A program made the translations under genes and the position numbers. Below are positions 27,039 through 56,665 of a stretch of 64,000 nt of DNA, piece after piece; the stretch's first letter is position 1; each line of letters opens with the position of its first letter. Location of the stretch: positions 4,489 to 68,488 of the forward strand of contig JBGVRO010000010.1 of NCBI GenBank assembly GCA_045128515.1, in the 5' to 3' direction. The notes below the pieces were generated by a model. It was not told the origin of the DNA, did not search any database, and saw nothing but the letters and a program-made list of their open reading frames with translations. The stretch comes from Eubacteriales bacterium (lineage in GTDB: Bacteria; Bacillota; Clostridia; Oscillospirales; CAG-272).

Positions 27039-27051
27039 TTTTCCTGTTGCA

Positions 27052-27086
27052 TAAAAAAGGACGAGTGAAAACTCGTCCTTTTTTTG
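27052..27086. terminator. Bidirectional intrinsic terminator
   Basis: aaaaaaggacgagt-gaaa-actcgtccttttttt. Confidence 0.78.
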
Positions 27087-27097
27087 TGAATTAATGA

Positions 27098-29399: not shown

Positions 29400-30926
29400 T
29401 TAGATAACTATGAAGCTACAGCTACCTGCAGGAATTTTGTATTCGCCTGCGGAAACTGTGTCACCGTCAAGGCAGGGAAGTGCATTGTTCTCACCGAGAG
29501 TGAGAGGTCTGCCGTTAAGGTACATAACCTTGTTTCTCATATTGCCGTTGCCGGAAAGAGTGTAAACGGTCGCATCCTTGGGAAGGTTAACGGTAGTTTC
29601 ATCGGTAAGAGAGTTGTTTACTACGAGATAGCAGTAACCATCCTTGCCGTCCTTACGGGAGTGAGCGTAAACGTGTGCGCCCTCGGTCTGGGGAGCTTCA
29701 GCGCGATAGCAGGTGTTGCCCATAAGACGCTGCCAGAGCAGAACTGCAAAGTAGTTGGGTCTTGGATCGAAGGAGCCGTGCTGAAGGAAGCCGTAGTCGG
29801 AGGAAGCAAGGGTGTTGTGGAAGATAACACCGTCGGTGAGAGTACAGAAGCTGCCAAGCTCGTTGAGAGTTCTGAGTACGTCAAGGTAGGTGGATGCCCA
29901 TGTGTCTCCGCCTCCGCCTGCGTCACCCGACTCGGTAACCCACATCTCGCCGCCGGGAACGTACTTATCACGTGCGGGAATGTTCATATAGCAGATGCCG
30001 GGAGCAACCTGAAGATATGCATCGGTGTGAGCTGCCTCTGCAGGCCAGTGACCGGTAGGCATCATGCCTGCAAGTCTCTCGGAAATTCCGTTGTAGTAGT
30101 GGTAGGAATATACGTCCATCTTTACCTGATGACCGCGCATAAGGTCGTGAACTGTACCCATGGTCATCATATTGCCGATGCCCGAGCCCATCTTTGCCAT
30201 AGGAGACTCCTCAATAGAGGTGTCGGTCATACCTGTGTTACAGGGACCTACGATAAGGCAGTTGGGATAGTTCTCTCTTACCCAAGCGTTTGCAATATCC
30301 TGGTCACGAACGTAATCCTCAAAGGTGTAGCCAACGGGTGCGCCGGAGATCTGAAGCATGTTAGGCTCGTTCATGAACTCGAATGCATCGATAGAGCCGC
30401 CAAGCTCCTCGGTAAGAGCAAAGAGCTTTTTGATCTGTGTAAGGTCAAGGGGTGCGCCGTCCTTATGGTCGCCTGCGCAGTTAGATGCGGAAACAAGAAG
30501 CTTGCCACCAACAGTCTTTACAAAATTAACGATATTTGCCCACTGCTCGCGGGTAAGCACGCTCTGGTATCCCTCGGGTGCCTTGCCACCGGTAGTGCCG
30601 TCGAAATCATAGTATGTCTTGGTTGCCCAAGTGCCGGATACTCTTACCCAAACAGGTCCAAGCTCCTTTGCAAGAGAGATAAGCTTTTCGTTGGTAGTAT
30701 CAATGGGGGGATAGTACTGCATAAGGCCTGCCATTGCGGTGTGATTCTGGAAACCGCCCTCAAGCTTTGGGAACTCCTCTGTACCTGCGATCTGTCCCTC
30801 GGTATATGCCTTCCAGAAGGTACCGCCGGTAACCTCTGTCATCTCTACGTTGTAGGACATAAGTCGGGGATTAATGCTGCGGATAGCCTGAAGCCCGTCA
30901 GCCTTAAATTCAAGATAATGTGCCAC
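29400..30926 (-). CDS. Clan GH-A glycoside hydrolase, GH79-like (beta-glucuronidase/heparanase family), cytoplasmic
   Basis: A (beta/alpha)8-type FEFMNEPN acid/base motif, a later WVTESG-type nucleophile segment (MWVTESGDAGGGG) and a C-terminal beta-sandwich. There is no signal peptide. The family assignment is from memory only. Confidence 0.55.
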   Translation of the reverse strand: MAHYLEFKADGLQAIRSINPRLMSYNVEMTEVTGGTFWKAYTEGQIAGTEEFPKLEGGFQNHTAMAGLMQYYPPIDTTNEKLISLAKELGPVWVRVSGTWATKTYYDFDGTTGGKAPEGYQSVLTREQWANIVNFVKTVGGKLLVSASNCAGDHKDGAPLDLTQIKKLFALTEELGGSIDAFEFMNEPNMLQISGAPVGYTFEDYVRDQDIANAWVRENYPNCLIVGPCNTGMTDTSIEESPMAKMGSGIGNMMTMGTVHDLMRGHQVKMDVYSYHYYNGISERLAGMMPTGHWPAEAAHTDAYLQVAPGICYMNIPARDKYVPGGEMWVTESGDAGGGGDTWASTYLDVLRTLNELGSFCTLTDGVIFHNTLASSDYGFLQHGSFDPRPNYFAVLLWQRLMGNTCYRAEAPQTEGAHVYAHSRKDGKDGYCYLVVNNSLTDETTVNLPKDATVYTLSGNGNMRNKVMYLNGRPLTLGENNALPCLDGDTVSAGEYKIPAGSCSFIVI

Positions 30927-31001
30927 GTGTATTTTCTCCTTTATTTTGTTTTTATTTTATCACAAATATTATAATACATTACCGTCTAAATGTCAACGAT
31001 A

Positions 31002-31051: not shown

Positions 31052-33511
31052 TTACTTGAAGTTAAGAGTGTTGAGAACCTTGGTTCCGTCCTCAAGAACT
31101 ACTGCAAGAACACAGCCTCTGTAGTTGTCCTTCTTGTCGTTCCAGTTACAGGGTGCAACCTCAATGGTGATCTCCTGACCTGCATATGCCTTAAGCCAGC
31201 TGTACTGAGCCGCGCCGGAGCAGTAGAGCTGAAGCTCAACGCCGTTATAGGTGATCTTAAGGTTGGTGTAGTATGCGGTTTCAACAACCTCAACAACGCA
31301 CTTAACAACGTAAACCTCGGTAGAGTGACTTTCTTCAACACTAAGCGCCTTGATGTCTGCGAGAGTCTTATCAGTGATAAACTTCTCGGTAGAATACTCG
31401 TGGTTGCCATAGTAGTTTGCAACGATCTCGCCGTTAACGATAGCATCCTGACCGTATGTGGTGTAGGTGTCATCCTTAATGAAGCGCTCTCTCATACCCT
31501 TCACAACGATCTCGTGTCCGATTGCAAGACCGTTAAATGCGTCCTCGCTAACAAGAACCGCGATCATAGAGCCGTCCTCGCCGAAGAGATAGAAGCCCAT
31601 ACGGTTTACAAGAGAGGGACCTACGATACCGCGAACTACAACGTCGGTATCCTTGGGAGTTGCGATAGCATCAGCAACGGTGATAGCCTCGATCTCTGCA
31701 TTTTCTTCGATTGTAACGTCAACAGACTGGCTGTATGTCTTTCCGTTGTAAGAGCCGGTTACGGTGACAGTAGCAGTACCTGCATTCTTACCGTGGAAGG
31801 TAACGGTGTTCTCGCTCTCGGTAAAGTAAACTACGTTCTCGTCAGAGGAGCTATAGCTAAGGGTTGCGCCCTCGAAGCCGAGAAGCTCGGAGGAAACAAC
31901 GGTCTGAAGTTCGATTGCGGGGTCGCCGGTGTAGCTGGAAATGAAGCCGGTAAGTCCGTGGTACTTAACTGCGTACTCAGCAGCGTTCTCGGTATTGAAG
32001 GTGTAACCCTCGTCGATAACCTCGATAGGAAGGAATCTCCATACGCAACCGGATGCAGAGGATTTTGCATTGATTGCAACAATGTAAACGGTGCAGAACT
32101 TGCCGTCAAACTCGTCAAGCCAGCTGAAGTCACCGCCGTTGCACTGAGTGTAGGTGTAAGATCCGGTAACGCCGTCAATATCGTCGAAGTAGTAGTTGAT
32201 AAAGCCTGTGCCGTCTACCCTCTTCACAAGTGCGGTTACCTTGAAGATCTTGTTGGTGATGTTCTCGGATACGGGAGTATCCATAATTTCCTTAACAGTG
32301 GTCTCTTCGATCCAGGACTTATCAAATGCGCTGTTGCCATTGTCGTTGGAAATAAGAAGTGCACTGTCAAGCTGGCACGCGCCCTTGTAACCGTATTTTT
32401 CAGCATTGCTCATTTCGGTTTCAAGAATCCAGGATGCCTTTTCGCCGGCAACTGTAATGGTGTTACCAACATTGACCTGACCCGCAACGTCACCGTCGTA
32501 TACGTAGATAGAGGATGTGCCGTCAACAAGAATTACACCGCTGGGCTTTTTGCCGGTTGCGTATGTGATCTGTGCAACAACGCCACTGATCTTGATCTTT
32601 GCGCCAAGCTCAGCCTCTCTTGCGTTTGCAATGGTCATATCAGCATACTCGGAGGGATCGATCTCAACCTCGTTGTGCTTGAACTCAACAACCCAAGCGC
32701 TCTTTACCTGGTTTGTTCCGTTATGATTATTAAGAGTACAGTAGAGAAGAACCTCGTCACCCTTCACAGGTCTCTCGGTCATATCTGCATAGCCAACAGT
32801 ACCGTCGCTGTTCTTGGTGTTGTATACGAGAAGCTCGCCGGTCTCGTCTGCAATGTACATTTCACCGTATGCAGGATTGCTTACTTTGGTGATAGTAGCG
32901 CGAATATAGTAGCGCTGAGCTGTCTCCTCGGTGTTAACCTTACAGATTTCAATAGCCTCTGCAATGGTGATAACCTTTATGGGAGCCTCAACAGCCTCGA
33001 ACTCAACGAGAGTTGCGGACTTGATGTACCATGCGCCATCAGTCTTTGCCAATACGCAATGAAGAAGAACCTTGTCAGCTTCGTCGGGCTTTTCGCTCAA
33101 CTTCTTGTAGGATTCGCCATCCTCGGAGTAAACTGCCTCAACTCTGATAGATCCGGTTGCATCCTCGATGATCATCTCACCGGTAGAGCTGCTAACAAGC
33201 TCCTTAACGGTTGCCTCTACGTAGCAGAGCTGGGAGAAGATAGTTCCGTCGGGATGCGTAGTGCCGAGTGCCTTATCCATATCAAGATCAGAAATAGAAG
33301 TCTTGATAATGCTGTCGCAGTCGTAGCACTTGCCGTCAATAACGTTTGCATGCTGACATGCGGGAGTCTCGTCACCACCATCGGGTGTGTTGCCCTGTTC
33401 GCCACCGAAAATGTCCTCAAGGAAGGGGAGCTGGTCACAAGAGACGATGCTCAAAGACATTACGACGAGAAGCAGGATAACTAACAAACGAGAAAGTAAG
33501 CTTTTGTTCAT
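31052..33511 (-). CDS. Large lipoprotein with repeated OB-fold-like modules and an Ig-like (Big_2-like) domain
   Basis: Lipobox LSIVSC. At least four modules of the type Y(V/I).AT(V/I)....GEM.I.D.TG...V; TATVTVTGSYNGKTYSQSVDVTI is Ig-like. Confidence 0.65.
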   Translation of the reverse strand: MNKSLLSRLLVILLLVVMSLSIVSCDQLPFLEDIFGGEQGNTPDGGDETPACQHANVIDGKCYDCDSIIKTSISDLDMDKALGTTHPDGTIFSQLCYVEATVKELVSSSTGEMIIEDATGSIRVEAVYSEDGESYKKLSEKPDEADKVLLHCVLAKTDGAWYIKSATLVEFEAVEAPIKVITIAEAIEICKVNTEETAQRYYIRATITKVSNPAYGEMYIADETGELLVYNTKNSDGTVGYADMTERPVKGDEVLLYCTLNNHNGTNQVKSAWVVEFKHNEVEIDPSEYADMTIANAREAELGAKIKISGVVAQITYATGKKPSGVILVDGTSSIYVYDGDVAGQVNVGNTITVAGEKASWILETEMSNAEKYGYKGACQLDSALLISNDNGNSAFDKSWIEETTVKEIMDTPVSENITNKIFKVTALVKRVDGTGFINYYFDDIDGVTGSYTYTQCNGGDFSWLDEFDGKFCTVYIVAINAKSSASGCVWRFLPIEVIDEGYTFNTENAAEYAVKYHGLTGFISSYTGDPAIELQTVVSSELLGFEGATLSYSSSDENVVYFTESENTVTFHGKNAGTATVTVTGSYNGKTYSQSVDVTIEENAEIEAITVADAIATPKDTDVVVRGIVGPSLVNRMGFYLFGEDGSMIAVLVSEDAFNGLAIGHEIVVKGMRERFIKDDTYTTYGQDAIVNGEIVANYYGNHEYSTEKFITDKTLADIKALSVEESHSTEVYVVKCVVEVVETAYYTNLKITYNGVELQLYCSGAAQYSWLKAYAGQEITIEVAPCNWNDKKDNYRGCVLAVVLEDGTKVLNTLNFK

Positions 33512-38725: not shown

Positions 38726-38762
38726 AAAAAAGTCAAATGTTTCTTTCACATTTGACTTTTTT
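38726..38762. terminator. Bidirectional intrinsic terminator
   Basis: aaaaaagtcaaatgt-ttctttc-acatttgactttttt. Confidence 0.72.
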
Positions 38763-38767
38763 GATAT

Positions 38768-39640
38768 TTAATTAAATTTTACCGATCCTGCCCACTTTAA
38801 AATGTCATCAGAATACTTTTTAGCGGACTTGGTTTCTACTATAAAATCTATCATCCAAAAACTGTTTCCGTTTTTATAAACATAGGCGTAATGTGTAAAG
38901 GACTCTCCACTTTCGTAAACGTAATATGTTAGATCGCCGTTAGTAATCACTGGGCTGTTTGTCATAAGTTTAGCATAATCTGCCTCGGTAAGGTGTGCAT
39001 TAGCACTATCTTCCATTCCTTCGTCTGTCGAAACAAATACAGCAACATTTTTTGAGCCGTAAACAGCATAATATCCAATATCGTGTTGTGTCTCAAATCC
39101 TTCGTTAAGCGTGATACTCATAGGTCCTGCAGTAAAGACCTTCTCACGCGACTCTAAGCCTGACATAACTCCCGCCATGCCAAAGTAACCTACCAAAACA
39201 CCTACGATTGCAGCGGCAATAATTACGAAAACGCCCTTACCGGTGCTCTTTTTTCTGTTGGCAGTCATATTAACGTCATTATCGTTGAAGCGAAAGGCGT
39301 TGCCTGCCATAGGATTGAATTTATTCTTTCCCGAGAGTGAGATATCCTCATCGCCTGCTTTAATGGGGTAACAGTCGTTGCAGAAATCCTTGCTTGCCTT
39401 GTCGGCAATAACGAAGATCATAGCAGCATCGTTACCGATCTCGAAGGTAGCCTCTTCACCGTTCTTGATCTCGCCAAGCTTACGGCAGCTTATCTTTTCA
39501 ACCTTCTTCTCGCCGGTCTCTGTGTCAACGGTGTGAAGGGGCATTTCCAGCTCGTTTGACTGAAAGTCGGAAATGTATACTTGCATTTTTGCGGCACAGC
39601 CAACGAAGCTTTTTTCTCTCTTTATACTAAGTTTTCTCAT
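38768..39640 (-). CDS. Hypothetical single-pass membrane protein, last gene of the TIR/PP2C operon
   Basis: RBS ggagg, a central TM (VFVIIAAAIVGVLVGYFGMAGV), a ~130-aa N-terminal domain and a ~135-aa C-terminal domain. Confidence 0.6.
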   Translation of the reverse strand: MRKLSIKREKSFVGCAAKMQVYISDFQSNELEMPLHTVDTETGEKKVEKISCRKLGEIKNGEEATFEIGNDAAMIFVIADKASKDFCNDCYPIKAGDEDISLSGKNKFNPMAGNAFRFNDNDVNMTANRKKSTGKGVFVIIAAAIVGVLVGYFGMAGVMSGLESREKVFTAGPMSITLNEGFETQHDIGYYAVYGSKNVAVFVSTDEGMEDSANAHLTEADYAKLMTNSPVITNGDLTYYVYESGESFTHYAYVYKNGNSFWMIDFIVETKSAKKYSDDILKWAGSVKFN

Positions 39641-39666
39641 TTTGAAGCCTCCAAATGTTGTTTTGT

Positions 39667-40473
39667 TTAGAACTGAAGCTTGATTAACGTTTTATCATCG
39701 GCATAGCTTGCGAAGGGCGGAGCATCGTATATTCCGGAGTCTGCGATTATTTCTTCGGGACTCTTGGTTATAAGATCAACAGCCTTTTCGTACTTAAGAT
39801 AATCGGCTATACCGTCGCTGGCGAGGAAGAGAAGATCACCCTCGCGAAGGTCTATTAAAGCGTACTGAACTCCGTCCATAACCACCTCGTCACCGTTAAA
39901 CACGGTGTATGACAGATGATTTTCGGGGTGGTTACAGTATAAGGCATACCGTTCGCTCTTGGTTGCCTTACAGAGATCGACAGCCTTGACGGTCAGCTCT
40001 CTGCCGAAAATGATCTTGGAGTTGTAACGTATCAGAAGACCGATACAGTCACCAACACAGAGATAATGCAGAGTTTTGCCGCGCAATATGGATATGATTC
40101 CAAGTGTAGAGGGGAAGAAGCTCCATTCCGCGGCGTTTTTTTTGCTACGGTATCTGCGTATCTCCTCATTCGCGATTTTTACAGCATTTTCAAGGATTTT
40201 TCTGGGATCAGGCTCGGACAGATGGTCACAAATATAGGTGTAGACCTCCTTGAGAAAAATATCTCCAACATCGCCTGCGGCACTCTCATAGGGAGCAGCC
40301 TCGTATTCATCGTGAGGTCTGGTCACTCCGTCTAAAACTATGAAAATACCGCGCTCCTTATCAACGAGAAGCCTGTCTTCGTTTGGCTTATCAAGCCCTC
40401 TGCCGTGGGGCTTGGTCGCATATTCTACGTAAAGGGCGTTTTTCATTAATAACATCGCTAAATCAATCTCCAA
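39667..40473 (-). CDS. PP2C-family (PPM) Ser/Thr phosphatase
   Basis: Motifs NEDRLLV, FIVLDGVT, VGDCIG, LFLASDGI and DDKTLI. The start is uncertain: the ATG at 40473 overlaps the upstream gene by 11 nt, and an alternative ATG lies at 40455. Confidence 0.75.
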   Translation of the reverse strand: MEIDLAMLLMKNALYVEYATKPHGRGLDKPNEDRLLVDKERGIFIVLDGVTRPHDEYEAAPYESAAGDVGDIFLKEVYTYICDHLSEPDPRKILENAVKIANEEIRRYRSKKNAAEWSFFPSTLGIISILRGKTLHYLCVGDCIGLLIRYNSKIIFGRELTVKAVDLCKATKSERYALYCNHPENHLSYTVFNGDEVVMDGVQYALIDLREGDLLFLASDGIADYLKYEKAVDLITKSPEEIIADSGIYDAPPFASYADDKTLIKLQF

Positions 40474-41962
40474 TGATTATTTCTGAGAACTTGTTTGTAA
40501 TCGAGTTAACAAGGGTGTCAATATGGGTAATATCCGAGTCACCCTTCTCGGGGAATTTGTGAGTGAATACCTCGCTGTCATCAAAGAAGTTGAGGAATGT
40601 CTTCATATTTTTTCCGGATAAGTAATAATTCTTCGGATCAACCGCGTGTCTTTCAACCAAAAGGTCTGATAGCATTTTTGAGGGAGGGATATTTCCTTCA
40701 AGGTTAACGAAGAAATGCTCCTTTTTATACTCCTCGGTGATCTTTATCTCCTCGCACACCGATTCGGTAGACATAACTCGCTTGCTTAAATAGAATACAA
40801 CGCCTTGGCAATCCTCGCTGCCGATACCCTTGGCGATCTGACCCTTCCAGTCTAATCCCTGAGTCAGTCTTTCGTCATATCTGAAGGGAACCTTGCGCTT
40901 GTAAAGCTCGATAAGATCACAGTATACCGACTTAAAGTCCTTTGAGGAATAGCAAACGAAGAAGAACTTATCTCCACGGCGTAAGTCGGGAAGGGGAGGG
41001 AGGATCGATGCCGAAACACAGTGATCCTGGTCGGATGCCTCTAAAATTGCCTTTTTACGTCTTTCAAGCTCCTCTAAGCTAGCGGGGAATCTGGGCGACG
41101 CCTTTCTGTCGATAACGTCATCCATATATTCCTTAAATTCCTCGTATTTTGCTCTCTCCTTTTCAAGATAGCGATTTCTGTTGTAATAAATATTGTAAAG
41201 ATATACGTCAGCCTGCTCGTCGATAAGCGCCGTAGCCTCGTCCCTTGCATCTATAAGCTGTTCTGTGTTCATTCCCTCACGTACTGCGGATAAGAAGGTC
41301 AACTGCGCTTTAAGGAAATAATATTTGGGATATGCGGGATTGAATGCTATTGCTCGGTCTATATATTGCTTTGCAAGTGCGATGTCATTGCCTTTGAGAG
41401 AGGGCTCTCTCTTTCTGAGCATAATGCATACAGTGGATGCGTACGAGATCAAAAGTCCTACGTTCTCGACCCCTCTGCTGCCAAGCACATTGATGGCAAG
41501 TTTGTCACAGGAAAGCGCTTTCTTAAAATTGTCAACTCGCTTAAAATATCGGGAATACACCTCGAAATGTAAAGCAAAGTTTCCAAAAATGTCATATTTT
41601 GCCGAAGTAAGGCTTAAAAGCCCTTCTTGGTTATCCTCTTTTTTGTAGATAAGTGAGAGGGCATAATAGGCTGCAAAGTAGATGTTTTCCTTGGCGTCAT
41701 AGTCAGCGTCAGCCTCTGCAAGTGAAAGTATTTCCTCAAGGCATAAAGAAAGCTCCTTAGGCGCGGTTTCAACAAAAACGTCCATCGCTAAGGTAAAATC
41801 GTATTTCTCAACGGTAAATTCATCGGTGATGATTCGAAGCACTTGGCAGATCGGATCAATTCGTCCATCTTCATCACTCCAATCGATGTTTAAGGAGGTA
41901 ATAGTTTTCCTTACGAATGCCTTTACGTCATCCTGCAATCTCTGATTGTTACTCATAGCCAC
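40463..41962 (-). CDS. TPR-like helical-repeat protein with a C-terminal TIR-like domain
   Basis: The N-terminal ~300 aa are helical repeats. Residues ~335-470 read FFFVCYSSKDFKSVYCDLIELYKRKVPFRYDERLTQGLDWKGQIAKGI..CQGVVFYLSKRVMSTESVCEEI. This matches the bacterial TIR pattern (F.SYS.KD....L...L......D.....G..W...I...I.....V..S......S.W...E). Confidence 0.62.
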   Translation of the reverse strand: MAMSNNQRLQDDVKAFVRKTITSLNIDWSDEDGRIDPICQVLRIITDEFTVEKYDFTLAMDVFVETAPKELSLCLEEILSLAEADADYDAKENIYFAAYYALSLIYKKEDNQEGLLSLTSAKYDIFGNFALHFEVYSRYFKRVDNFKKALSCDKLAINVLGSRGVENVGLLISYASTVCIMLRKREPSLKGNDIALAKQYIDRAIAFNPAYPKYYFLKAQLTFLSAVREGMNTEQLIDARDEATALIDEQADVYLYNIYYNRNRYLEKERAKYEEFKEYMDDVIDRKASPRFPASLEELERRKKAILEASDQDHCVSASILPPLPDLRRGDKFFFVCYSSKDFKSVYCDLIELYKRKVPFRYDERLTQGLDWKGQIAKGIGSEDCQGVVFYLSKRVMSTESVCEEIKITEEYKKEHFFVNLEGNIPPSKMLSDLLVERHAVDPKNYYLSGKNMKTFLNFFDDSEVFTHKFPEKGDSDITHIDTLVNSITNKFSEIIIGD

Positions 41963-41985: not shown

Positions 41986-42014
41986 ATTATATCACTTATA
42001 TGTCGAATTGTCAA
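41986..42014 (-). promoter_or_regulatory. Consensus sigma-A promoter of the TIR/PP2C operon
   Basis: On the minus strand: TTGACA, 17 nt, TATAAT (both hexamers perfect), ending ~24 nt upstream of the ATG. Confidence 0.65.
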
Positions 42015-42026
42015 CTTTTTTGTTAA

Positions 42027-42064
42027 ATGAAAAACAGCAACCGAGAAAAAACTCGATTGCTGTC
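42027..42064 (-). terminator. Intrinsic terminator of the protease gene
   Basis: On the minus strand: acagcaatcgag-tttttt-ctcggttgctgt followed by ttttc. Confidence 0.6.
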
Positions 42065-42079
42065 AGCTTGTATTTTGCT

Positions 42080-43078
42080 TTAGTTGTAAACGTATGTATT
42101 CAAAAACTCCCATATTTTCTCTGCGGGAATAGCATAACTGATATCGTTGTCACCGGTCGAGCCCGCATAATTAACGCCCACAACGTCAAGGTTACTGTTG
42201 AGCAATGGACCGCCGCTTGATCCTCCCTTGATGTCGGCATTGTGTCTTATTACGTCAAAGGTTACGTTGCTTTCATTTTTAGGTGTATCGTCAAGAGTTA
42301 TGGCCTTGTATTCCTTTACTTTACCAAAGGTAATAGTATTAGTCTGTCCGTCGGGTGTGCCGAGGGAAATTACGTCATCCTGAAGATGGGGATTTGTTCT
42401 CAAAATTTCAAGAGGCTTTACCTCTGTGCTACCCGATTTGAAGTAAATGCAGGCTAAATCGTAGTCCGCAGACTTCGCTTCTTTATTTTTGCTCGGGTTG
42501 GTGTAAAGCTGTGCTGTGTACTGATTTCCCTTGTAATCGGTAACCCTGATCCTCATTTTGTCATATCCGGACGGCCCTTCCACTACGTGGCAATTTGTCA
42601 GTATGTAGTAATATCCGTCGTTTTCGCTGATGCAGAAGCCGGATCCGAGATACCAACCGGTCTTGTCGGTTTCTATCATTCCCCAAAGGACCTCATTGTA
42701 ATACTGGCACTCGATCTTAACGATGCTTTTCATAGCATTTTGAGAAATTTCATTGGTGATCTTCCCGGCATCAAGCTCAAACTTTGCATATAAGGTCAGA
42801 TCCGAGTGTACCTCCTCCGAAAAGTCGTATCTCTCGGTGCACGCATAGTTGGAGAACCAACCGAGAAAAACATAGTTTTTCTTTACAGGATCAGCGGGCA
42901 TTGAAACCCTGTCGCCGTCATTGACGTAAATCACGCTTGAGTTGTTAGCGTTGTATACGAAGGCTACCTCCCAGCTACCCTTGGGGCGGTCTGACGCACC
43001 GTCATTTTTGCCACAGGATATCATCAGGCAACAAACGAGGCAGCTAAGGATCAAAAGCAAAAGGAACTGTTTCTTCAT
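42080..43078 (-). CDS. Trypsin-like (S1) serine protease lipoprotein with a Listeria-Bacteroides repeat
   Basis: Lipobox LMISCG. The repeat is Y.FLGWF.........DF...V..DLTLYAKF. The catalytic triad contexts are TNCHVV (His), DLACIYF (Asp) and GGSSGGPL (Ser). Confidence 0.8.
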   Translation of the reverse strand: MKKQFLLLLILSCLVCCLMISCGKNDGASDRPKGSWEVAFVYNANNSSVIYVNDGDRVSMPADPVKKNYVFLGWFSNYACTERYDFSEEVHSDLTLYAKFELDAGKITNEISQNAMKSIVKIECQYYNEVLWGMIETDKTGWYLGSGFCISENDGYYYILTNCHVVEGPSGYDKMRIRVTDYKGNQYTAQLYTNPSKNKEAKSADYDLACIYFKSGSTEVKPLEILRTNPHLQDDVISLGTPDGQTNTITFGKVKEYKAITLDDTPKNESNVTFDVIRHNADIKGGSSGGPLLNSNLDVVGVNYAGSTGDNDISYAIPAEKIWEFLNTYVYN

Positions 43079-43372: not shown

Positions 43373-43981
43373 ATGTTCGGTAGCATAAAGGAAGTATGGG
43401 GCGGTGAGATGAAGAAGATCACAATGTCTATTATGATAATTTTTCTTTGCCTTACGTCTGTTGTCGGCGTTACTTGGGCGTTGTTTACACACAGCAACGA
43501 CGGCAAGATCGGTATAAATACAACCAGCGGCTATATTGACATGGATATCGTTGATACGAATGGGGACTCACTTGTTGATAAGGTTCTTGAATTTGAATCC
43601 GGTGTCGACAACAGAGAAACGATTTACTTTGAACCTGGCGCAACCTTCCATACCCAGGGCTTTAAGGTTGTGAACAACGGTAATATAAATGTTAATTACC
43701 GTGTTTACATCAGTAACGATGAGACTGAAAACATGGAGTCATTCAACAAGGCGTTCGAGCTTTGGATCTGCGAGGATCTGAGCAAGATAAACGAGGCGAA
43801 GAAGATAACCGAGTTTGAGGGAACTCTCGGTCCTGAGGAAAGCGGCAAGGTTTACTATCTTGTAATCAGGATGAAGGAAAGCGCAGGCAATGAATTCCAA
43901 AACAAGGTTTACAGCGGTATCGGAATAACCGTGTACGCAGTACAGGGTAACGTTAATATAAACAGCATTCCGCACGATTAA
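43373..43981 (+). CDS. TasA/camelysin-like small subunit with a SipW-class signal peptide
   Basis: ..IIFLCLTSVVGVTWALFTHSNDG...TSGYIDMDI, and the domain-closing motif AGNEFQNKVYSGIGITVYAVQ. RBS ggaggtga. Confidence 0.8.
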   Translation: MFGSIKEVWGGEMKKITMSIMIIFLCLTSVVGVTWALFTHSNDGKIGINTTSGYIDMDIVDTNGDSLVDKVLEFESGVDNRETIYFEPGATFHTQGFKVVNNGNINVNYRVYISNDETENMESFNKAFELWICEDLSKINEAKKITEFEGTLGPEESGKVYYLVIRMKESAGNEFQNKVYSGIGITVYAVQGNVNINSIPHD

Positions 43982-43990
43982 GGAGTTTGT

Positions 43991-45202
43991 ATGGAAATAA
44001 AAAACAATAAAGTACTTAACATCATACTCAAGGTTGTAACGGGCTTACTGATAGCATTCACCGTATTCATTATGATCTTCACCGTCGTATCGGTTACCAC
44101 CCTTGACAAAAATGACCGTAACCTTTTCGGTTTCAGATTCTACATAGTACAGACCGACTCAATGAGTCCCTCTGAAAACAATGCTCATCTCGACGTTCAT
44201 TTCAGCGCAGGTGACATCGTTGTTATCAAGAACGTTAAGAATCCTACTAAGCTTGAGGCAGGAGATATCATTGCTTTTATCTCGACTAACAAGGTAAGCT
44301 ACGGCGAGACCGTAACGCATATGATCCGTAAGCCTACGGTTGATAAGGATGGCAGAACCTGTTACGTTACTTACGGTACTAACACTAATACTGATGATGA
44401 AGCGTGCGTGTATCCCGAGTACGTAATCGGCGAGTACGCAGGCAAGCTTCCCGGTGTCGGACACTTCTTCGCATTCGTTAAGTCCACCCCCGGTTACATC
44501 TGCTGTATTTTGATTCCTTTCCTGCTTCTCATACTTTATAACGGCGCTGACGTAATCCGCCTGTTCAGAAAGTACAAGAAGGAGCAGACCGCTATACTCG
44601 ATGCCGAAAAGGCTGAGATCGCCGCAGAGAGAGCGCGTAATGAGGAAATGCTTCGCGAGCTTCTTGCTCTTAAGAATCAGCTCGCAGGTAATGCTCCTGC
44701 CGAGGCACAGCCCACAGCGACTGCCGAAGCACCTGTCACAGAGACAGCGCCTGTCGTAGAAGCGGCTCCCACGGTTGAGGAGAAGCCCATGACAGAGGAG
44801 GAGATCGCTGCTCAGAAGAAGGCTGAAGCTGCTCGCAAGCGTAAGGAAACCCTCGCTCGCAAGAAGGCAGAGGCAGAGGCGGCAAAGCTCGCTGAGGAGG
44901 AGGCTGCACGTAAGGCTGCCGAGGAAGAGGCACAGCGTCTTGCTGATGAGGCTGCCGCACAGAAGAAGGCTGAGGCTGCTCGTAAGCGCAAGGAAACTCT
45001 TGCTCGTAAGAAGGCAGAAGCTGAGGAAGAGGCGGCACGTGTTGCTGCTGAAGAAGAGGCACAGCGCCTTGCTGATGAAGCTGCCGCACAGAAGAAGGCT
45101 GAAGCTGCTCGCAAGCGTAAGGAAACCCTCGCTCGCAAGAAGGCAGAGGCAGAGGCGGCAAAGGCTGCTGAAAACAATCCCGACGACAAGTCGGACACTT
45201 AA
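43991..45202 (+). CDS. sipW: Archaeal/ER-type (S26B, SipW-like) signal peptidase I with a ~210-aa Ala/Glu/Lys-rich C-terminal tail
   Basis: N-terminal TM, the Ser box VQTDSMSP, GDIVVI and GDIIAF boxes, the His box VTHMI and a second TM (YICCILIPFLLLILY). Three tail repeats of AAQKKAEAARKRKETLARKKAEAE follow. Confidence 0.8.
   Translation: MEIKNNKVLNIILKVVTGLLIAFTVFIMIFTVVSVTTLDKNDRNLFGFRFYIVQTDSMSPSENNAHLDVHFSAGDIVVIKNVKNPTKLEAGDIIAFISTNKVSYGETVTHMIRKPTVDKDGRTCYVTYGTNTNTDDEACVYPEYVIGEYAGKLPGVGHFFAFVKSTPGYICCILIPFLLLILYNGADVIRLFRKYKKEQTAILDAEKAEIAAERARNEEMLRELLALKNQLAGNAPAEAQPTATAEAPVTETAPVVEAAPTVEEKPMTEEEIAAQKKAEAARKRKETLARKKAEAEAAKLAEEEAARKAAEEEAQRLADEAAAQKKAEAARKRKETLARKKAEAEEEAARVAAEEEAQRLADEAAAQKKAEAARKRKETLARKKAEAEAAKAAENNPDDKSDT
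44807..45165 (+). repeat. Three tandem coding repeats (periods 144 and 129 bp) in the SipW tail
   Basis: Copies begin at 44807, 44951 and 45080. The first and third are nearly identical at the DNA level (gaagaaggctgaagctgctcgcaagcgtaaggaaaccctcgctcgcaagaaggcagaggcagaggcggcaaag). Confidence 0.85.
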
Positions 45203-45278
45203 TTTTGTTCTATCCGCTTCGGCGTTTAGATATTGTTTAGTTATTGGTCTTTAAAAATATAAAAAGGAGGAAAAAATT

Positions 45279-47252
45279 ATGACCAATTTAAAGGCAACTA
45301 AGAAGGCGTTGGTAAGCAGCGTTCTCGCGCTTGTTATGTGCTTTACAATGCTTCTTGGTACAACATTTGCATGGTTCACCGATTCTGTAACCAGCGCAAA
45401 TAACGTAATTCAGACCGGTACCCTCGACGTAGGATTCCAGTGGGCTGAAGGTAATGAAGATCCTTCTACCGCTACTTGGAACGATGTTGAAGGTGCACTC
45501 TTCAACTATGCTAACTGGGAGCCCGGTTATGCAGTAGCAAAGCATCTCAAGATTTCCAACAATGGTTCTCTTGGCCTTAACTACAAGGTTCGTATCTTCG
45601 CAAACGGCGTTGTTAGCGACCTTGCTGAGGTAATCGACGTTTACGTTGTAGCAGGTGCTGTTGATGCAATGGATCGTAACACTCTTGCAGGTCTTGAGCC
45701 CGTTGGTACTCTTACTCAGGTTCTTCTTGCAAGCGGCGCAGACGATGCTGAGAACGAAGCTGACATGGGCTATGATGTTAGCGAGCTTATCAAGGGTTCT
45801 CTTGATGTTGACGCAGACGATCACGTTTACACTCTCGTTCTTAAGATGAATGAGAACGCAGGTAACGAGTATCAGGATATGGATCTCGGCTGTACCTTCT
45901 CCGTTCAGCTCCTTGCAACTCAGATGGCAGCAGAAGAGGATAGCTTCGACAATCAGTACGATGCAGTTGTTCCCAACGAGGAAATTCCTGCAGCACTTGT
46001 AAGACCTCTTGATAATCTCTCTGTTGTAGTTGGCGAGCACGTTGATTACGGCGATATGAGTGGTAATCTTACTCTTGACACAGGCTACAAGTTCCAGCCT
46101 ACCGCATCGCTTGAGGATAATGAGAAGTCTCTGTACAGACATTGGATAGCAGATTACGTTGTCTATGCTGATGCAGACGTTCCCGCAAATTCCATGGCAC
46201 TTGCAGGTTACTACAAGTTATTCTGCGAAGGATTTAACGACGGTAACTGGATAGCACTTAGAGCTGAGGAAGATATCGCGGCAGGAACAGAGATTCGTCT
46301 TGTAGAGGCAATGGGCGGAGGAGATATTTTTGTATCTTACAAGGATATTTGCCAGTGGGGTGCTGACGGATATGGATTCCAGTGTGGCGCAGTTGACCTG
46401 ACCGGCGAGAACATGGGTACTACCATCACTGTTGAGCTTCGTATTTACGAGACAACAGCTGATTGGACTGATTCCCGCGCTTCCAGCGAAGAGACCGGCA
46501 ACTACATCACAATCGGCAAGTTCGAGTACACCTTTGGTGTTAACACCGCAGAGAAGCTTGAGTATGCTCTCACCAACAGTGGCGAGTACAAGCTCACCTC
46601 TGACATCGAGCTTGATGCAGACGATACTATCACCGTTCCTGCAGATGTAACTACCGTTATTGACCTTAACGGCTATACTATTACTGCAGTTTCCGATGAT
46701 GCAGACGAGAACGATGACGGCAAGCTCACTTCCGCTGATAACGAGGTTGCAATCGACGTGAGAGGTAATCTCACTGTTAAGAACGGAACAATCACCATGG
46801 AGCATAAGTCTGACAACTTTGGTTGGAACGCATGCACCGAGGTGTTCTACGTTGCATTTAACGGAACTCTGAATGTTGACAATGCAGTTATTGCAAACCT
46901 TGGCGGATCCGACATGGCGTATGCGATTGACATTGTAAACGCAACTAACGCAACCGTAAACGTAACTAATTCCACTCTCAAGTCCACATATATCCCCGTT
47001 CGTGTATTCAACAATGGCACCGGTATGAACCACGTAACCATTAAGAATACCAAGCTTGACGGTGTAAGCCGTGCTTTCTGGGTACATATTTATTCCAATG
47101 CGGATAACAGCGGCAAGGGAATTAAGGATGCAACTCTGGATCTTGATATCTACGGAAACGGCAATACCTTTATTGCAAAAGATCCCGCAAGAATCATTGA
47201 GTTTGGATTTACGGACGAAATCAACTTCGACGCAAACGGCAACCAGATTTAA
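45279..47252 (+). CDS. TasA-like N-terminal domain fused to a beta-helix passenger (657 aa)
   Basis: Signal ..LVMCFTMLLGTTFAWFTDSVTSANNVIQTGTLDV and domain end AGNEYQDMDLGCTFSVQLLATQ. The C-terminal half is rich in beta-helix-like N.T(V/I).N repeats. Confidence 0.8.
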   Translation: MTNLKATKKALVSSVLALVMCFTMLLGTTFAWFTDSVTSANNVIQTGTLDVGFQWAEGNEDPSTATWNDVEGALFNYANWEPGYAVAKHLKISNNGSLGLNYKVRIFANGVVSDLAEVIDVYVVAGAVDAMDRNTLAGLEPVGTLTQVLLASGADDAENEADMGYDVSELIKGSLDVDADDHVYTLVLKMNENAGNEYQDMDLGCTFSVQLLATQMAAEEDSFDNQYDAVVPNEEIPAALVRPLDNLSVVVGEHVDYGDMSGNLTLDTGYKFQPTASLEDNEKSLYRHWIADYVVYADADVPANSMALAGYYKLFCEGFNDGNWIALRAEEDIAAGTEIRLVEAMGGGDIFVSYKDICQWGADGYGFQCGAVDLTGENMGTTITVELRIYETTADWTDSRASSEETGNYITIGKFEYTFGVNTAEKLEYALTNSGEYKLTSDIELDADDTITVPADVTTVIDLNGYTITAVSDDADENDDGKLTSADNEVAIDVRGNLTVKNGTITMEHKSDNFGWNACTEVFYVAFNGTLNVDNAVIANLGGSDMAYAIDIVNATNATVNVTNSTLKSTYIPVRVFNNGTGMNHVTIKNTKLDGVSRAFWVHIYSNADNSGKGIKDATLDLDIYGNGNTFIAKDPARIIEFGFTDEINFDANGNQI

Positions 47253-47275
47253 TTAGGATCTTGTCGTAATTTGTC

Positions 47276-47297
47276 CCCAAGCCCCTCGGGGCTTGGG
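47276..47297 (+). other. GC-rich stem-loop without a U-tract, just after the 657-aa gene
   Basis: cccaagcccc-tc-ggggcttggg (10-bp stem). Confidence 0.6.
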
Positions 47298-47365
47298 CGG
47301 CAACAAAAGGGCATGAAGATTCCCTATATATAATATTAATGTAGCTTCCTGCCTTTTTGTTGTCG
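47298..47365 (+). other. Long-range 16-bp stem enclosing a 36-nt AT-rich loop, immediately upstream of the giant gene
   Basis: cggcaacaaaagggca (47298-47313) pairs with tgcctttttgttgtcg (47350-47365), with 14 Watson-Crick and 2 G-U pairs. Confidence 0.55.
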
Positions 47366-47400
47366 CAAATATAAAAAACATTTGAAAGGATTCACCGACA

Positions 47401-50400
47401 ATGAACCCCACCCAAAAATCATTTCTGACAAGCATCGTTGCTTTGGTGCTCTGCCTTACCATGTTCCTCGGCACAACATTTGCATGGTTCACCGACATTG
47501 TGGTAAGCGGCGGCAACATTATCCAGTCCGGTAAGCTCGATGCCGAGATGTATTGGTCTGACGAGTACCTTGCCTCCACCGACAGCGGTTGGACACAGGT
47601 TAAGGACAACAAGCCAATATTCACCTACGATAACTGGGAGCCCGGCTATACTGAAATTAAGTATATTAAGGTAGCAAATGCCGGCAACCTTAACTTCAAG
47701 TGGAAGCTTTCCATTGAGGCAGAGGGCAAGGTAACAGACCTCTCCGACGTTATCGACGTTTATTACGTTAATCCCGTAAACGGTGAGCTTACTAAACAGG
47801 CTCTTGCAGCACGCACTCCTGACGGAAAACTCACTGACGTTCTTGCAAACAAGACCGCTACCGAGGGCGATCAGCTTACTCCCGGCGGATCTGTTGTTCT
47901 CGCAATCGCGTTCCAGATGGATAAGCTTGCAGGCAACGAGTATCAAGAAAAGTCCCTTTGTGATAAGGGCTTCTCGCTTAAGCTCCTTGCAACTCAGGCA
48001 ACAGGCGAAAACGACAGCTTTGACGATCAGTACGACAAGGAGTCCGAATGGCCCGAAATTCCTTCCGCAGGAAACAACGCATCTGCTGACGTTCCTACCG
48101 ATGCGAACGGTGTTGTTACAACCGAAACTACCATTACCGGCAACGGTATGAGCGCAACCGTTCCTGCAGGTACTCAGCTTACCCAGGGCACAAACAAGCT
48201 GACTCTCAGCGTTAACAACGTAGAGGACAGCAAGGCAAACGTAACTCTTGCTGAAGGCGAGGAGCTTCGTGCTCTTGACGTACATATCTCCGGCGTAGCC
48301 GAGGGTAACACCACTCCTATTGCCGTAACTCTTACCGAGGCATTGCCCAAGGGTCTTAATATCGGTAACTACACCCTCCACCACGTAGAGGATGGACAGA
48401 CCGTTCCGATGACTCTGCTTGCCGACGGCGCAACTCCCGTACACAACAACTTCACCTACGATCCCGTAACAGGTGACGTAACCCTCTATATGGCATCCTT
48501 CTCGGAGGTTGACCTTATTGCAGAGCCTGCAAAGTGGGAGGGTAAAAGAGATTACTCTTGGTACACAAATGCTGTTGCTCCTGTTGACGGTGAGGCTGTA
48601 ACCGAGTACGTAATCGCAAACGCAGACCAGCTTGCAGCCTTCAGCGCAATCGTTGGTGGAATGGACGGTCAGACTCGCGACTCTTTCGTAGGTAAGACCG
48701 TAAAGCTCGTTGCCGACATCAACCTTGGCGACAAGGAAAGCGAAAATAACCCCGAAGTTATCTTCTATCCCATCGGCTACTACAACTCCGAGGGAACTTA
48801 TGAAAGAACTAACACCGCCATTACCTCCGGACTTAGAATCTTCGAGGGTACATTTGACGGTAACGGTCACACCGTTTCTAACTTCTACCACAACACATGG
48901 GAGATGAAGGGTGACCACGACTGGTATTCACCTGAAGAACAGTATTACCGCGACGGTATGGGTCTGTTCGGTCGTGTTTACAAGGGTACTGTAAAGAACC
49001 TTACTGTAAAGAACTTCTCCTCTGACGGTGAGATCGCAACCACAGGCGTTATCGCTGCTTATGCAGACGGCGCAACATTTGAAAACATCGCAATCTTCAA
49101 CTGTAATCCTCGCGTTTACAACATCGGTAACGGTGGTATTGTAGGCTGCGTTGGTTGGTATGCAAAGGATGCTGGTTTAACAACTACCTTTAAGAATATT
49201 ACAGTTGATAATTCTAACAAGATCTCCGCACTTTGGGGCTCTTATGACGTAGCTTGCGGCGGTATCGTTGGTCAGTACTATCCTACCAGCGGTCAGACCT
49301 CTGCAGGTACTCCCAAGAACGCAGGTATCTCCTTCGAGAACTGCCACGTTTCCGCAGTTATGGACGTTTATAACGACGTTTGCGCAAACTATCAGTACTA
49401 TGCTTACCGTTACACCGGTATGCTTATCGGTTCCGTTCGTGAGAATGTAACTATTGACGGTCACTCCTACCCCAAGATGGACGGCATCACAGCAAAAGAT
49501 TGCACCGTTCACTTCGGCACATGGAATGATTACTACTATTGTGAGATTATCGATAATACCACAGCATCTTATACCCACGATTATCAGATGAGCCGTCTTA
49601 CCGAGATCAAGGCCATCGATGGCACAACCATCACCTATCTCGACGGCACAACAGGTACCGTTCCTGCATCCGGCAGAGCCAACTACGTTATCGTTGACTA
49701 CACCAAGGGACACGGCACCGAGAACGCAACCTGCTATCACTTTAAGGATGGAGCAGTTTGGACTCACGATATGGGCGGTGCTCATGACGGCACCGACGGC
49801 GGAAAGATAATTGACGAGAACGGTGACGGTAAACCCGACCTCAGAGAAGATAAGCAGCACATCTACCTCGAATTCAACAACCTCGTAACCGGCTACGGCT
49901 GGGGTGTAACATCTAGAGGATTCAATAACCTCAACGGTGTTACTAATCTTGATATTCAGCAGGGCGAACAGGAATCTTCCGTTGAAAAGTTTGAGGATGC
50001 AGGATATACTCCTAAGGATTACAGACCTGGTGAAACAATCACGATCGGAGATCTCTTTAATGTAAAGGGTAATGCTGTTATCAACGGCAAGTCTGTATAT
50101 GTTTCTGTTTCTCCTGTAACTGAGGACGATAAGGTAAGCGCTACCTTCCAGCTCGATCCTGATGATTGGACAAAGAGCACTATCACCTTCGCGGCTGACT
50201 CTACCGGTACCGCAAAGGTAACTATTACAGATTATATCTTCTGTACTCCTACTACAATCTACCTTAACGAGGAAGAAGCAAAAACAAAGTTTACTGCAAA
50301 TAGTGTTTCTGCACAGGAAGCATATACACAGATTACTCTTAGCACCATCTTTGGTGTTAAGAACGGTGCAACAATCGGTAATGTTACCGCGACTGTAACT

Positions 50401-53295: not shown

Positions 53296-53305
53296 TTAAA
53301 ATTAC

Positions 53306-53331
53306 CCCCCCCGACCTTCGGGTCGGGTGGG
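53306..53331 (+). other. GC-rich stem-loop without a U-tract, just after the giant gene
   Basis: cccccccgacc-ttcg-ggtcgggtggg (11-bp stem with one mismatch). Confidence 0.55.
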
Positions 53332-53395
53332 ATTACCCCCAAAAATAAACGGAATTGATGAAAAGACGAAATAAAACGAAAGGAGGTTATTCGTT

Positions 53396-53920
53396 GTGAG
53401 CTTTTTTGAAAAACTCAAAAAGCCTGAGGAGGCTGAGGATGAAGTCGTTACCGACAAGGCATTTATGCGTGGCATAATTACATCATTCTTTGCAATCGCT
53501 ATGTGTATTATTATGCTGGGCGCTTCTACTTACGCCTGGTTTACCACTTCTATTCAGAGCACTCAGACAATATCCTCTGCCGTTTATGTTTTAAGTATTA
53601 AGGTCGATGGTGGCGGTGAGATACTTAGTCCCACAACGTATAAAGGTAACGACGTCTACACCCTTGAGGGAGGTAAGACCTATACCGTAACCGTAACCGC
53701 CGTCGAGGAGGGTACTACCGGTAACACAGGCTACATAAAGCTTGAGATCGGTGACCAAAGCTTTGTTTCAGATCAGATTGACCGTGGAAAAACGATCACC
53801 TTCACCCTTACGTTTACCGAGGAAACCGAGGTAACGATTGTTGAGGGCTGGGGAACGTCCAGCGCCGAGGTCAGAACGATCCATAACAATGGCAAATACG
53901 ATAACAATAACCTAAAGTAA
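53396..53920 (+). CDS. TasA-like small subunit (174 aa) with a SipW-class signal peptide
   Basis: GTG start 8 nt after aggagg; ..FFAIAMCIIMLGASTYAWFTTSIQSTQTISS. Confidence 0.72.
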   Translation: MSFFEKLKKPEEAEDEVVTDKAFMRGIITSFFAIAMCIIMLGASTYAWFTTSIQSTQTISSAVYVLSIKVDGGGEILSPTTYKGNDVYTLEGGKTYTVTVTAVEEGTTGNTGYIKLEIGDQSFVSDQIDRGKTITFTLTFTEETEVTIVEGWGTSSAEVRTIHNNGKYDNNNLK

Positions 53921-53985
53921 CTTACAAATAATTCGAGAGGAGGTTTTTAGTCATAAACGTATTATTTAAAAGAGTATTACTCGTT

Positions 53986-54447
53986 GTGCTCAGTATATTG
54001 ATCCTTGTCGGTGTTGGACTGATGATATGGATGCTTTTGGCAGATCATGGTGGCGAGGCGATCAAGGTACGCGTTGACGTTGACATTGCGGTCGAAGCAG
54101 GTATCAATGACGTAGTAATCGTTCCCGGATATAAAAATGAATATCACCTGAAGGTGACGGCAGATAAGCCGGATGAGTATGATTTGACCTTCTCCTTCGT
54201 AGAACAGGGCAACACAGCAAACGCCCTGAAGGATAACCTCTACATCCTCATCGAGCATGACGGTGTAGTGTACTGCGATGCAAAGCTCTCCGAGCTTTAT
54301 GAGGGCGGTCCGACAATGACCCTTCAGCTTAAGCGACTTGTGGCGCAGGACGTTAAGGTTATCTATTATATCCCCGAAGAAGTTGGCAATGAAATTAAGG
54401 GCGACGAAATTGATTTCGGATTGTTTATCACTGCCCGAGAAAAGTGA
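53986..54447 (+). CDS. Divergent TasA-like small protein with an N-terminal TM and no AxFTD motif; start uncertain
   Basis: The frame is open from 53932. A GTG at 53986 would begin inside the TM helix. The C-terminal motif EVGNEIKGDEIDFGLFITA parallels the AGNEYQ...ATQ ends of its neighbours. Confidence 0.55.
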   Translation: MLSILILVGVGLMIWMLLADHGGEAIKVRVDVDIAVEAGINDVVIVPGYKNEYHLKVTADKPDEYDLTFSFVEQGNTANALKDNLYILIEHDGVVYCDAKLSELYEGGPTMTLQLKRLVAQDVKVIYYIPEEVGNEIKGDEIDFGLFITAREK

Positions 54448-54454
54448 GAAATTT

Positions 54455-55822: not shown

Positions 55823-55878
55823 TATTATTGCAATAATGCAATATTTCAATATTCAACTGTTTGAAAGGAGGACAAACA

Positions 55879-56544: not shown

Positions 56545-56665
56545 TTGTCGATTTGTCATAGCACATCCCAATTAACAACAGGCCGTGATTTTGGACTTTG
56601 GTCACGGTTTGCAACCTAAAATTCCATGTTCGAACATATAAACTTTAGAAAGGTAGAAAAAGACA

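Follow-up and report, generated by a model that had tools for sequence, protein, structure and literature searches.

A TPR-TIR protein paired with a PP2C phosphatase: a rare two-gene module of uncultured gut Firmicutes and a candidate immune or suicide switch

Why would a bacterial TIR protein be encoded together with a phosphatase? The question is raised by three co-oriented minus-strand open reading frames (ORFs) at positions 38768-41962 (genes 1, 2, and 3, of 499, 268, and 290 residues) in a 64,000-nucleotide stretch of the genome of an uncultured Eubacteriales bacterium (assembly GCA_045128515.1, contig JBGVRO010000010.1), which was analysed as a whole and is called the window here. An earlier, sequence-only reading of this DNA had seen in the three genes a TPR-TIR protein, a PP2C phosphatase, and a membrane protein, and had proposed that the trio might be one defence or signalling system. 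We find that genes 1 and 2 are, as judged from gene order and gene fusion in their relatives, a self-contained two-protein module, a pair and not a trio. TIR domains have a central part in bacterial, plant, and animal immunity, and the way in which their cleavage of NAD+ is restrained is a live question. If it is true that the phosphatase gates the TIR domain, the pair would represent a bacterial phospho-control of a TIR enzyme and a new sensor logic for abortive infection.

The pair is defined by its relatives. About 80 full-length homologues of gene 1 were found, without exception in uncultured Clostridia-type metagenome-assembled genomes (MAGs) or metagenomes. In 20/20 non-redundant loci, over a range of gene 1 identities of 24-60%, the gene that directly follows the gene 1 homologue is a gene 2 homologue, and the pair is present again in two further loci (L050 and L052). 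Half of the 20 loci are split, as in the window, into proteins of about 497 and 262 residues, and the other ten carry one fused ORF of 623-861 residues with the domains in the same order. Because the adjacency is strict and the two proteins are fused in other lineages, in the manner of a Rosetta-stone fusion, a functional link between TIR and PP2C is indicated. An all-against-all comparison of neighbouring genes revealed no other recurrent gene beside the pair, including no kinase, STAS, or anti-sigma gene. The same picture emerged from a HMMER search of 1.84 billion cluster representatives, which gave 128 matches at E <= 1e-30 and of which the best 150 representatives were classified with local hidden Markov models. 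Among these 150 were 29 split TPR-TIR proteins, 32 fused TPR-TIR-PP2C proteins, three TPR-PP2C proteins without TIR, and six proteins with the TPR-like domain and no TIR (five with the domain alone and P0387 with two copies). Another 78 had this TIR subtype only, usually at the N-terminus and mostly followed by LRR_5 (19), MORN (18), or Sel1/TPR repeats. The PP2C type of gene 2 was never found without the TPR-like domain among the best 150.

The domain structure of gene 1 was resolved with an AlphaFold2 model built from 39 homologues (predicted local distance difference test, pLDDT, 91.4; predicted template modelling score, pTM, 0.77), in which helices spanning residues 7-317 are followed by a beta-alpha domain that extends to residue ~495. 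In Foldseek comparisons, the N-terminal part matched the TPR superhelices of SPY and OGT (E = 3e-5), and residues 330-495 matched the TIR domains of the plant NLR proteins RUN1 (7rts), RPS4 (4c6t_D), RPV1 (5ku7), and RPP1 (7dfv), with TMt values of 0.62-0.66 over ~170 columns. Residues 426-497 supply the alphaD-betaE-alphaE half of the TIR domain. A whole-protein phmmer search with gene 1 against the PDB returned nothing useful. A profile of the TIR region compared with solved structures gave the ThsB cyclic ADP-ribose (cADPR) synthase 9uv0 as the best match (E = 2e-4), then the ThsB-like 3hyn, and also the plant TIR 7xoz. The Pfam TIR_2 model (PF13676) scores 19.3 bits on residues 334-422 of gene 1, below its cut-off of 28; the fused homologues pass this threshold (38.7-40.3 bits), and the precomputed annotations of several split homologues include PF13676.

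E405 is invariant both in 39 split sequences and in 19 split and fused sequences, and it aligns with the conserved Glu of helix C in ThsB 9uv0 and plant TIR 7xoz (motif S..x..S.WC..EL). F335, Y338, D342, Y347, D349, D363, and W372 are also invariant in the TIR domain, and the solenoid has a family motif of its own, NPxYPKYYFLKA, around N208-Y214. The C-terminus of gene 1 is thus, by alignment and model, a complete predicted TIR domain, of the NAD-cleaving type by its conserved Glu. The TPR-like helices and TIR domain that had been claimed from the letters are borne out by the model and its Foldseek matches, and for residues 330-480, where the sequence-only reading had left the fold and the catalytic Glu to structure prediction, a TIR fold is modelled and E405 is conserved. 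Mean pairwise identity is 0.48 for the TIR domain, 0.40-0.44 for the PP2C domain, and 0.28-0.35 for the solenoid; the two catalytic domains have thus diverged less than the solenoid, the fastest-evolving part of the module.

Gene 2 was recognised by the Pfam PP2C_2 model (26.3 bits, cut-off 24). Its score against the NCBIfam Stp1 equivalog is far under the cut-off (30 against 230), and it is therefore not an Stp1/PrpC orthologue. The metal-binding residues E32-D33 (in P30-x-E32-D33), D48-G49, G141-D142, D220-G221, and D259-D260 are invariant in 19/19 split and fused sequences; the metal-coordinating acidic residues were judged to be those of PPM motifs I, II, VIII, and XI. The PPM beta-sandwich fold was judged not on gene 2 itself but on the fused homologue L031 (805 residues, 35% identical in the PP2C part; model pLDDT 90.6, pTM 0.77), whose C-terminal domain matched PstP (1txo/2cm1), PppA (6jkv), tPphA (2j82), and Stp1 in Foldseek with TMt values of 0.73-0.81 (E = 2e-9). 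Family-specific residues are also conserved, namely, R52 (18/19), N181, Y189, and N193-G194; motif II reads DG[VI][TS]R, and the N181...Y189...N193-G194 block sits where PPM proteins carry the flap. Neither Pfam nor PADLOC identified an effector, sensor, or signal-binding domain in gene 2, which is a bare PP2C fold. With the Pfam threshold passed and the metal motifs invariant, the original assignment of gene 2 stands: it is a genuine PP2C phosphatase with an intact predicted active site.

The relatives of gene 1 suggest which parts of the module are constant and which are exchangeable. Six proteins (P0349, P0377, P0405, P0426, P0427, and P0387), known here from protein sequences alone, have the TPR-like domain without a TIR domain and end in 3-4 predicted membrane helices. 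A profile made from these TPR proteins with a three-transmembrane-helix (3-TM) tail alone matches the N-terminal domain of gene 1 at E = 7.5e-41, and the two N-terminal domains are therefore homologous. In P0413, P0421, and P0429, the TPR-like domain is fused straight to a PP2C domain of the gene 2 type, with no room for a TIR domain. Three family members carry an added N-terminal SMEK domain, a nuclease effector of short-pAgo systems (PMC10810196), and one SMEK-TPR-TIR member keeps the PP2C gene downstream (54% identity). We would give even odds to the idea that the TPR-like domain and the PP2C are a constant sensing or regulatory core, to which the TIR domain would be attached as an exchangeable toxic, NAD+-cleaving effector that is freed when the phosphatase brake is overridden.

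The pair is a rare, patchy accessory module of uncultured gut and rumen Firmicutes. Full-length matches were found in 1/300 genomes of an order sample, 0/400 genomes of the family (0/7 of the same genus), and 0/400 genomes of the phylum, and a pattern scan of 185,579 species genomes recovered 18 loci. The hosts are MAGs of Oscillospiraceae, Ruminococcus, Lachnospiraceae, Christensenellaceae, Faecousia, and Anaeroplasma/Mollicutes from human and ruminant guts. This rare, patchy distribution across lineages indicates that the module is accessory and horizontally spread. No empty site was found; in the same-genus genome that was compared, gene 3 and the OB-fold neighbour are missing too, which leaves no clean comparison.

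What would such a module do? In the reading given even odds above, which is the one that we favour, the PP2C of a resting cell, either bound to the TPR-TIR protein or part of the same chain, would keep the module off by removing phosphate; the phosphate could be carried by the TPR-TIR protein, by the PP2C, or by a host factor bound to the module. The brake would give way to a trigger: the solenoid might capture an invader protein, kinase activity might surge, or the phosphatase might be inhibited. The TIR domains would then self-associate, cleave NAD+, and arrest or kill the cell, following an abortive-infection or stress-suicide logic. A bolder reading, with a probability of roughly 0.3, is a new class of prokaryotic immune or suicide switch, in which TPR-like domain and PP2C would form a phospho-state sensor core that reads a kinase/phosphatase imbalance resulting from infection and releases exchangeable killers. 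Such an imbalance could arise from a kinase or a phosphatase inhibitor of the phage or from the activation of a host PASTA kinase, and the killers would be the TIR NADase here and, in relatives, a SMEK nuclease or a pore-like 3-TM tail. If this switch exists, it would be the first case of a bacterial TIR gated by a phosphatase. At 2.3 kb, and with both predicted active sites mapped, the module is small and lends itself to direct tests in laboratory strains.

Several observations weigh against the favoured mechanism. No kinase is co-encoded with the pair, and the sole Pkinase match of the genome is a PrkC-like protein on another contig, next to a canonical PrpC. When split and fused forms are compared, the only conserved Ser/Thr positions of gene 1 are 393, 399, and 428, all in the TIR core motif, and no dedicated phosphosite is evident. 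Occurrence in defence islands, which the sequence-only reading had put up for checking, was not borne out. The neighbours are housekeeping or metabolic genes that differ in every lineage (tRNA synthetases, shikimate pathway enzymes, P-type ATPases, glycosidases, and transporters), and PADLOC, run on 114 neighbours in 17 loci, gave scattered single matches only, plus two extra TIR_2 genes. The module itself goes unrecognised by PADLOC, whose models matched gene 1 with 0 families and gene 2 with a lone PP2C match at E = 0.042. Searches of phage, plasmid, and IMG/VR collections gave no matches to the module, and its GC content (44.2%, against 44.8% in the window) shows no compositional anomaly. 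Finally, a PP2C that serves as output would account equally well for the TPR-PP2C fusions that lack a TIR domain.

This last point leads to a doubtful but substantial alternative, a non-immune stress-signalling phosphatase in which the PP2C is the output and the TPR-like and TIR domains are its regulatory inputs. The TIR domain would, for example, read or consume NAD+ as a metabolic signal, and the PP2C would act on an unlinked phosphoprotein of the host, for instance a target of the single PrkC-like kinase of the genome. RsbU, RsbP, and SpoIIE have a C-terminal PP2C that is under the control of sensory domains at the N-terminus. The fused forms of the module share this order, from sensor through TIR to a terminal PP2C, and the existence of TPR-PP2C fusions without a TIR or transmembrane effector is consistent with a phosphatase output. 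So are the housekeeping contexts, which include neither defence islands nor mobile-element genes, and the PrkC/PrpC pair of the genome, which could supply phosphorylated substrates. The strong conservation of the flap region (N181, Y189, and N193-G194) suggests one fixed substrate. However, the rarity of the module (0/400 in the family, 0/7 in the genus) would be unusual for housekeeping signalling, and the neighbourhood holds no recurrent STAS, anti-sigma, or other substrate gene, which, with the TIR placed in between and the very patchy distribution, sets it apart from RsbU, RsbP, and SpoIIE. The TIR catalytic Glu is invariant, and relatives exchange the TIR domain for transmembrane helices or add a SMEK nuclease, both typical toxic effectors. 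If it were true instead that the TIR domain regulates the phosphatase, the module would link NAD+ chemistry to Ser/Thr phospho-signalling.

It is improbable that the pair works in the way of Thoeris, with gene 1 as a ThsB-type synthase that senses infection through its solenoid and makes a cADPR-type signal, and with the PP2C (or, here, gene 3) as the activated effector. Thoeris, of which types I-XI are distinguished, joins a ThsB TIR signal synthase to ThsA or another effector. The Glu at the catalytic position, the ThsB structures 9uv0 (E = 2e-4) and 3hyn at the head of the profile matches, and the compact two-gene operon are all reminiscent of that system, and the 29 putative effector types of a 2025 survey include hydrolases and transmembrane proteins (10.64898/2025.12.03.692087). 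However, the fusion of TIR to PP2C in half of the loci suits a direct physical coupling better than a diffusible signal. The TIR protein has a 320-residue TPR-like solenoid, and its partner is a bare PP2C with no recognisable signal-binding domain, unlike the Thoeris effectors with their signal-sensing domains (SLOG, Macro, and others). Conservation of the pair does not extend to gene 3, the loci show no enrichment in defence islands, the module is not recognised by PADLOC, and the 2025 survey (10.64898/2025.12.03.692087) makes no mention of a phosphatase or PP2C.

A further proposal, which we consider very improbable, is that the PP2C acts on a small molecule, stripping phosphate from the product or substrate of the TIR domain (e.g., NADP-derived 2'-phospho-ADP-ribose), and that the pair is a two-step nucleotide-processing enzyme. 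The fusion of both catalytic domains and the atypical motif II, DG[VI][TS]R with R52 in 18/19 sequences, would fit; the classical PPM motif II is DGHGG or DGMGGH. However, the closest structures are bacterial protein Ser/Thr phosphatases, TPR-PP2C fusions without TIR exist, and, to our knowledge, all characterised PPM enzymes are protein phosphatases.

Comparisons with other known systems help to place the immune or suicide switch. SARM1/TIR-1 is an NADase in which an autoinhibitory solenoid of ARM repeats and SAM precede the TIR domain, and SARM1 is modulated by phosphorylation. In both cases, helical repeats in front of the TIR domain may hold it inactive until a trigger arrives; the module, in contrast, is bacterial, lacks SAM, adds a dedicated PP2C, and has no detectable sequence relation to SARM1 beyond the TIR fold. 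The combination of the TPR-like domain with a TIR domain, with 3-4 transmembrane helices, or with an added SMEK nuclease is similar to the effector modularity of CBASS, Pycsar, and related abortive-infection systems, in which a single sensor core is combined with TIR, transmembrane, or nuclease effectors, but there is no cyclase or other generator of a nucleotide signal, and the constant partner would be the PP2C. A PP2C-type phosphatase as a brake inside a conflict module is found in TerY-P, which consists of vWA, PP2C, and a Ser/Thr kinase. It is also found in KKP, a prophage kinase-kinase-phosphatase module (PMC11341870). Those systems, however, encode their own kinase or kinases and no TIR domain, whereas no kinase recurs beside the pair. 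The TIR domain is of the same subtype, with a D[FY]KxVYxD[LI] motif in helix A, as that of the uncharacterised TIR-LRR_5, TIR-MORN, and TIR-Sel1/TPR proteins of gut Firmicutes, which the gene 1 profile matches at E values of about 1e-29 to 1e-48. These proteins also join a TIR domain to a protein-binding repeat array, but their TIR domain is N-terminal, their repeats are C-terminal, and they have no PP2C; in the module, the solenoid is N-terminal and the PP2C obligatory.

No description of a TIR paired with PP2C turned up in full-text literature searches on bacterial or defence contexts, in agreement with the sequence-only reading, which knew of no system of this kind. In Kaur et al. 2020, PP2C appears solely in connection with kinase-vWA systems, and the survey of TIR systems by Yirmiya et al., with its 29 putative Thoeris types, never mentions a phosphatase (bioRxiv 10.64898/2025.12.03.692087). 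The TIR-PP2C pair looks like an undescribed variant of TIR-based modules.

That the TPR-TIR protein, the PP2C, and the bitopic membrane protein encoded by gene 3 are one defence or signalling system can hardly be upheld: the three share one promoter, one terminator, and tight spacing in the window, and in the closest relatives (L020-L023) the pair is again followed by gene 3, but the flanking genes are equally syntenic there, gene 3 is truncated in L020 and L023, missing from L024 (45% gene 1 identity) onwards, and replaced in L001 by an unrelated gene with no similarity to it, and its family stands alone elsewhere. ECF-S, OB-fold, and ABC-transporter genes are syntenic as well in L020-L023, and the linkage of gene 3 is therefore plain vertical synteny. 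The three-gene cassette, on whose co-occurrence in other genomes the sequence-only reading had made its proposal depend, was seen only in these four syntenic loci. Gene 3 was accordingly rejected as a member of the module, being lost or replaced at gene 1 identities of ~45% or below. It does encode a single-pass membrane protein without known domains, as had been described, with one hydrophobic helix at ~137-160. No Pfam or PDB relative was found for it, even by profile, and PADLOC matched it with 0 families; what did not hold was its place in the unit. Its family comprises >285 single-pass membrane proteins of ~288 residues in Clostridia and is stand-alone in 3/3 sampled distant contexts. The N-terminal cytoplasmic domain of the family is strongly conserved (MRxLxIKREKSF...CRKxG...GNAFRF), and the extracellular C-terminal domain is strongly conserved as well.

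The layout of the locus matches the first description in most respects: three tightly packed minus-strand genes lie behind a perfect promoter (12/12 positions) and between terminators (Table 1). The leader between promoter and gene 1 start is about 20-25 nucleotides long. The true start of gene 1 is most likely the ATG at 41956, which is preceded by a GAGAGG Shine-Dalgarno sequence and gives 497 residues as in the homologues, and that of gene 2 is most likely the ATG at 40455 (39667-40455), which gives 262 residues as in 90+ homologues. With these corrected starts, the junction between genes 1 and 2 is most likely a 7-nucleotide gap and not the 11-nucleotide overlap reported before; the 26-nucleotide gap between genes 2 and 3 was correct and holds the GGAGG Shine-Dalgarno sequence of gene 3, which is probably co-transcribed with the pair here.

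Table 1 Coordinates of the module, its control elements, and the other TIR_2 proteins of the genome (window positions unless a contig is given)
Feature	Position	Strand	Basis or remark
Gene 1, TPR-like solenoid and TIR	40463-41962	-	499-residue ORF from GTG
Gene 1, N-terminal all-helical TPR-like domain, residues 1-320	41003-41962	-	Model, Foldseek, alignment
Gene 1, predicted TIR domain, residues 330-495, betaA to alphaE	40478-40975	-	Profile, model, alignment
GAG codon of E405, Glu at TIR catalytic position	40748-40750	-	Alignment
Gene 2, PP2C/PPM phosphatase	39667-40473	-	268-residue ORF from TTG at 40473
Gene 3, single-pass membrane protein, 290 residues	38768-39640	-	ORF
Promoter, sigma-70-type, TTGACA-17-TATAAT with TG extension	41986-42014	-	Sequence match, 12/12
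Terminator of the upstream trypsin-like lipoprotein gene	42033-42064	-	Separates that gene from the module
Bidirectional intrinsic terminator hairpin	38726-38762	both	Closes the operon; overlaps the promoter of the ECF-S transporter gene
TIR_2 proteins L044-L049	C9:23826-24947, C9:32336-34957, C9:173-2272, C28:16132-17049, C26:35715-38114, C26:38157-40577

Upstream of the operon, at 42080-43078 on the minus strand, lies a gene for a trypsin-like lipoprotein that is secreted and contains a Listeria-Bacteroides repeat (Flg_new) domain. It was rejected as a member of the module, having its own promoter and terminator and never recurring beside the pair, and its exclusion by the sequence-only reading was justified. 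The protein matches the PADLOC LmuA and RT-protease models solely via the generic trypsin fold, and it is a possible false positive in defence annotation pipelines.

Two of the loci with the pair have neighbourhoods that deserve mention. In L052 (5122-9724), the pair lies beside genes for a 753-residue unknown protein, a 94-residue RyR-domain protein, and a 1364-residue DUF4062 protein; this is the only defence-like neighbourhood seen among the pair loci. DUF4062 has reportedly been renamed NIR, an NADase immune domain, in a 2026 preprint. In L039 (4733-8268), from an Anaeroplasma MAG, a fused TPR-TIR-PP2C gene is convergent to a row of genes consisting of rlmN, a gene for a PASTA-only protein (290 residues), rsgA, and rpe. 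The rlmN-rsgA-rpe cluster of Bacillus subtilis normally holds prpC and prkC; no PP2C or kinase domain was called between rlmN and rsgA in L039.

The 2.0-Mb genome that harbors the pair encodes six more TIR_2 proteins (L044-L049), a TIR repertoire that is unusually large for a genome this small. Three of them are TIR-TPR proteins of about 800-870 residues, two of which are encoded in tandem. One has its TIR domain fused to an N-terminal D-Ala-D-Ala dipeptidase-like region, one has an LRR-like C-terminal region, and one is a 373-residue TIR protein.

Elsewhere in the window, the plus strand at 43373-58648 carries a cluster of genes for camelysin/TasA-like (Peptidase_M73) proteins and for a giant protein of 1964 residues without a Pfam match, which looks like a TasA/SipW-type surface-fibre locus. 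At 43991-45202, a 403-residue membrane protein is encoded with a C-terminal tandem Ala/Lys/Glu-rich repeat, AAQKKAEAARKRKETLARKKAEAE.... Long ORFs (437-819 residues) are open on both strands at 24849-27107, 29400-30974, 31052-33511, 47401-48918, and 56666-58648, most of them without a Pfam match on the strand examined.

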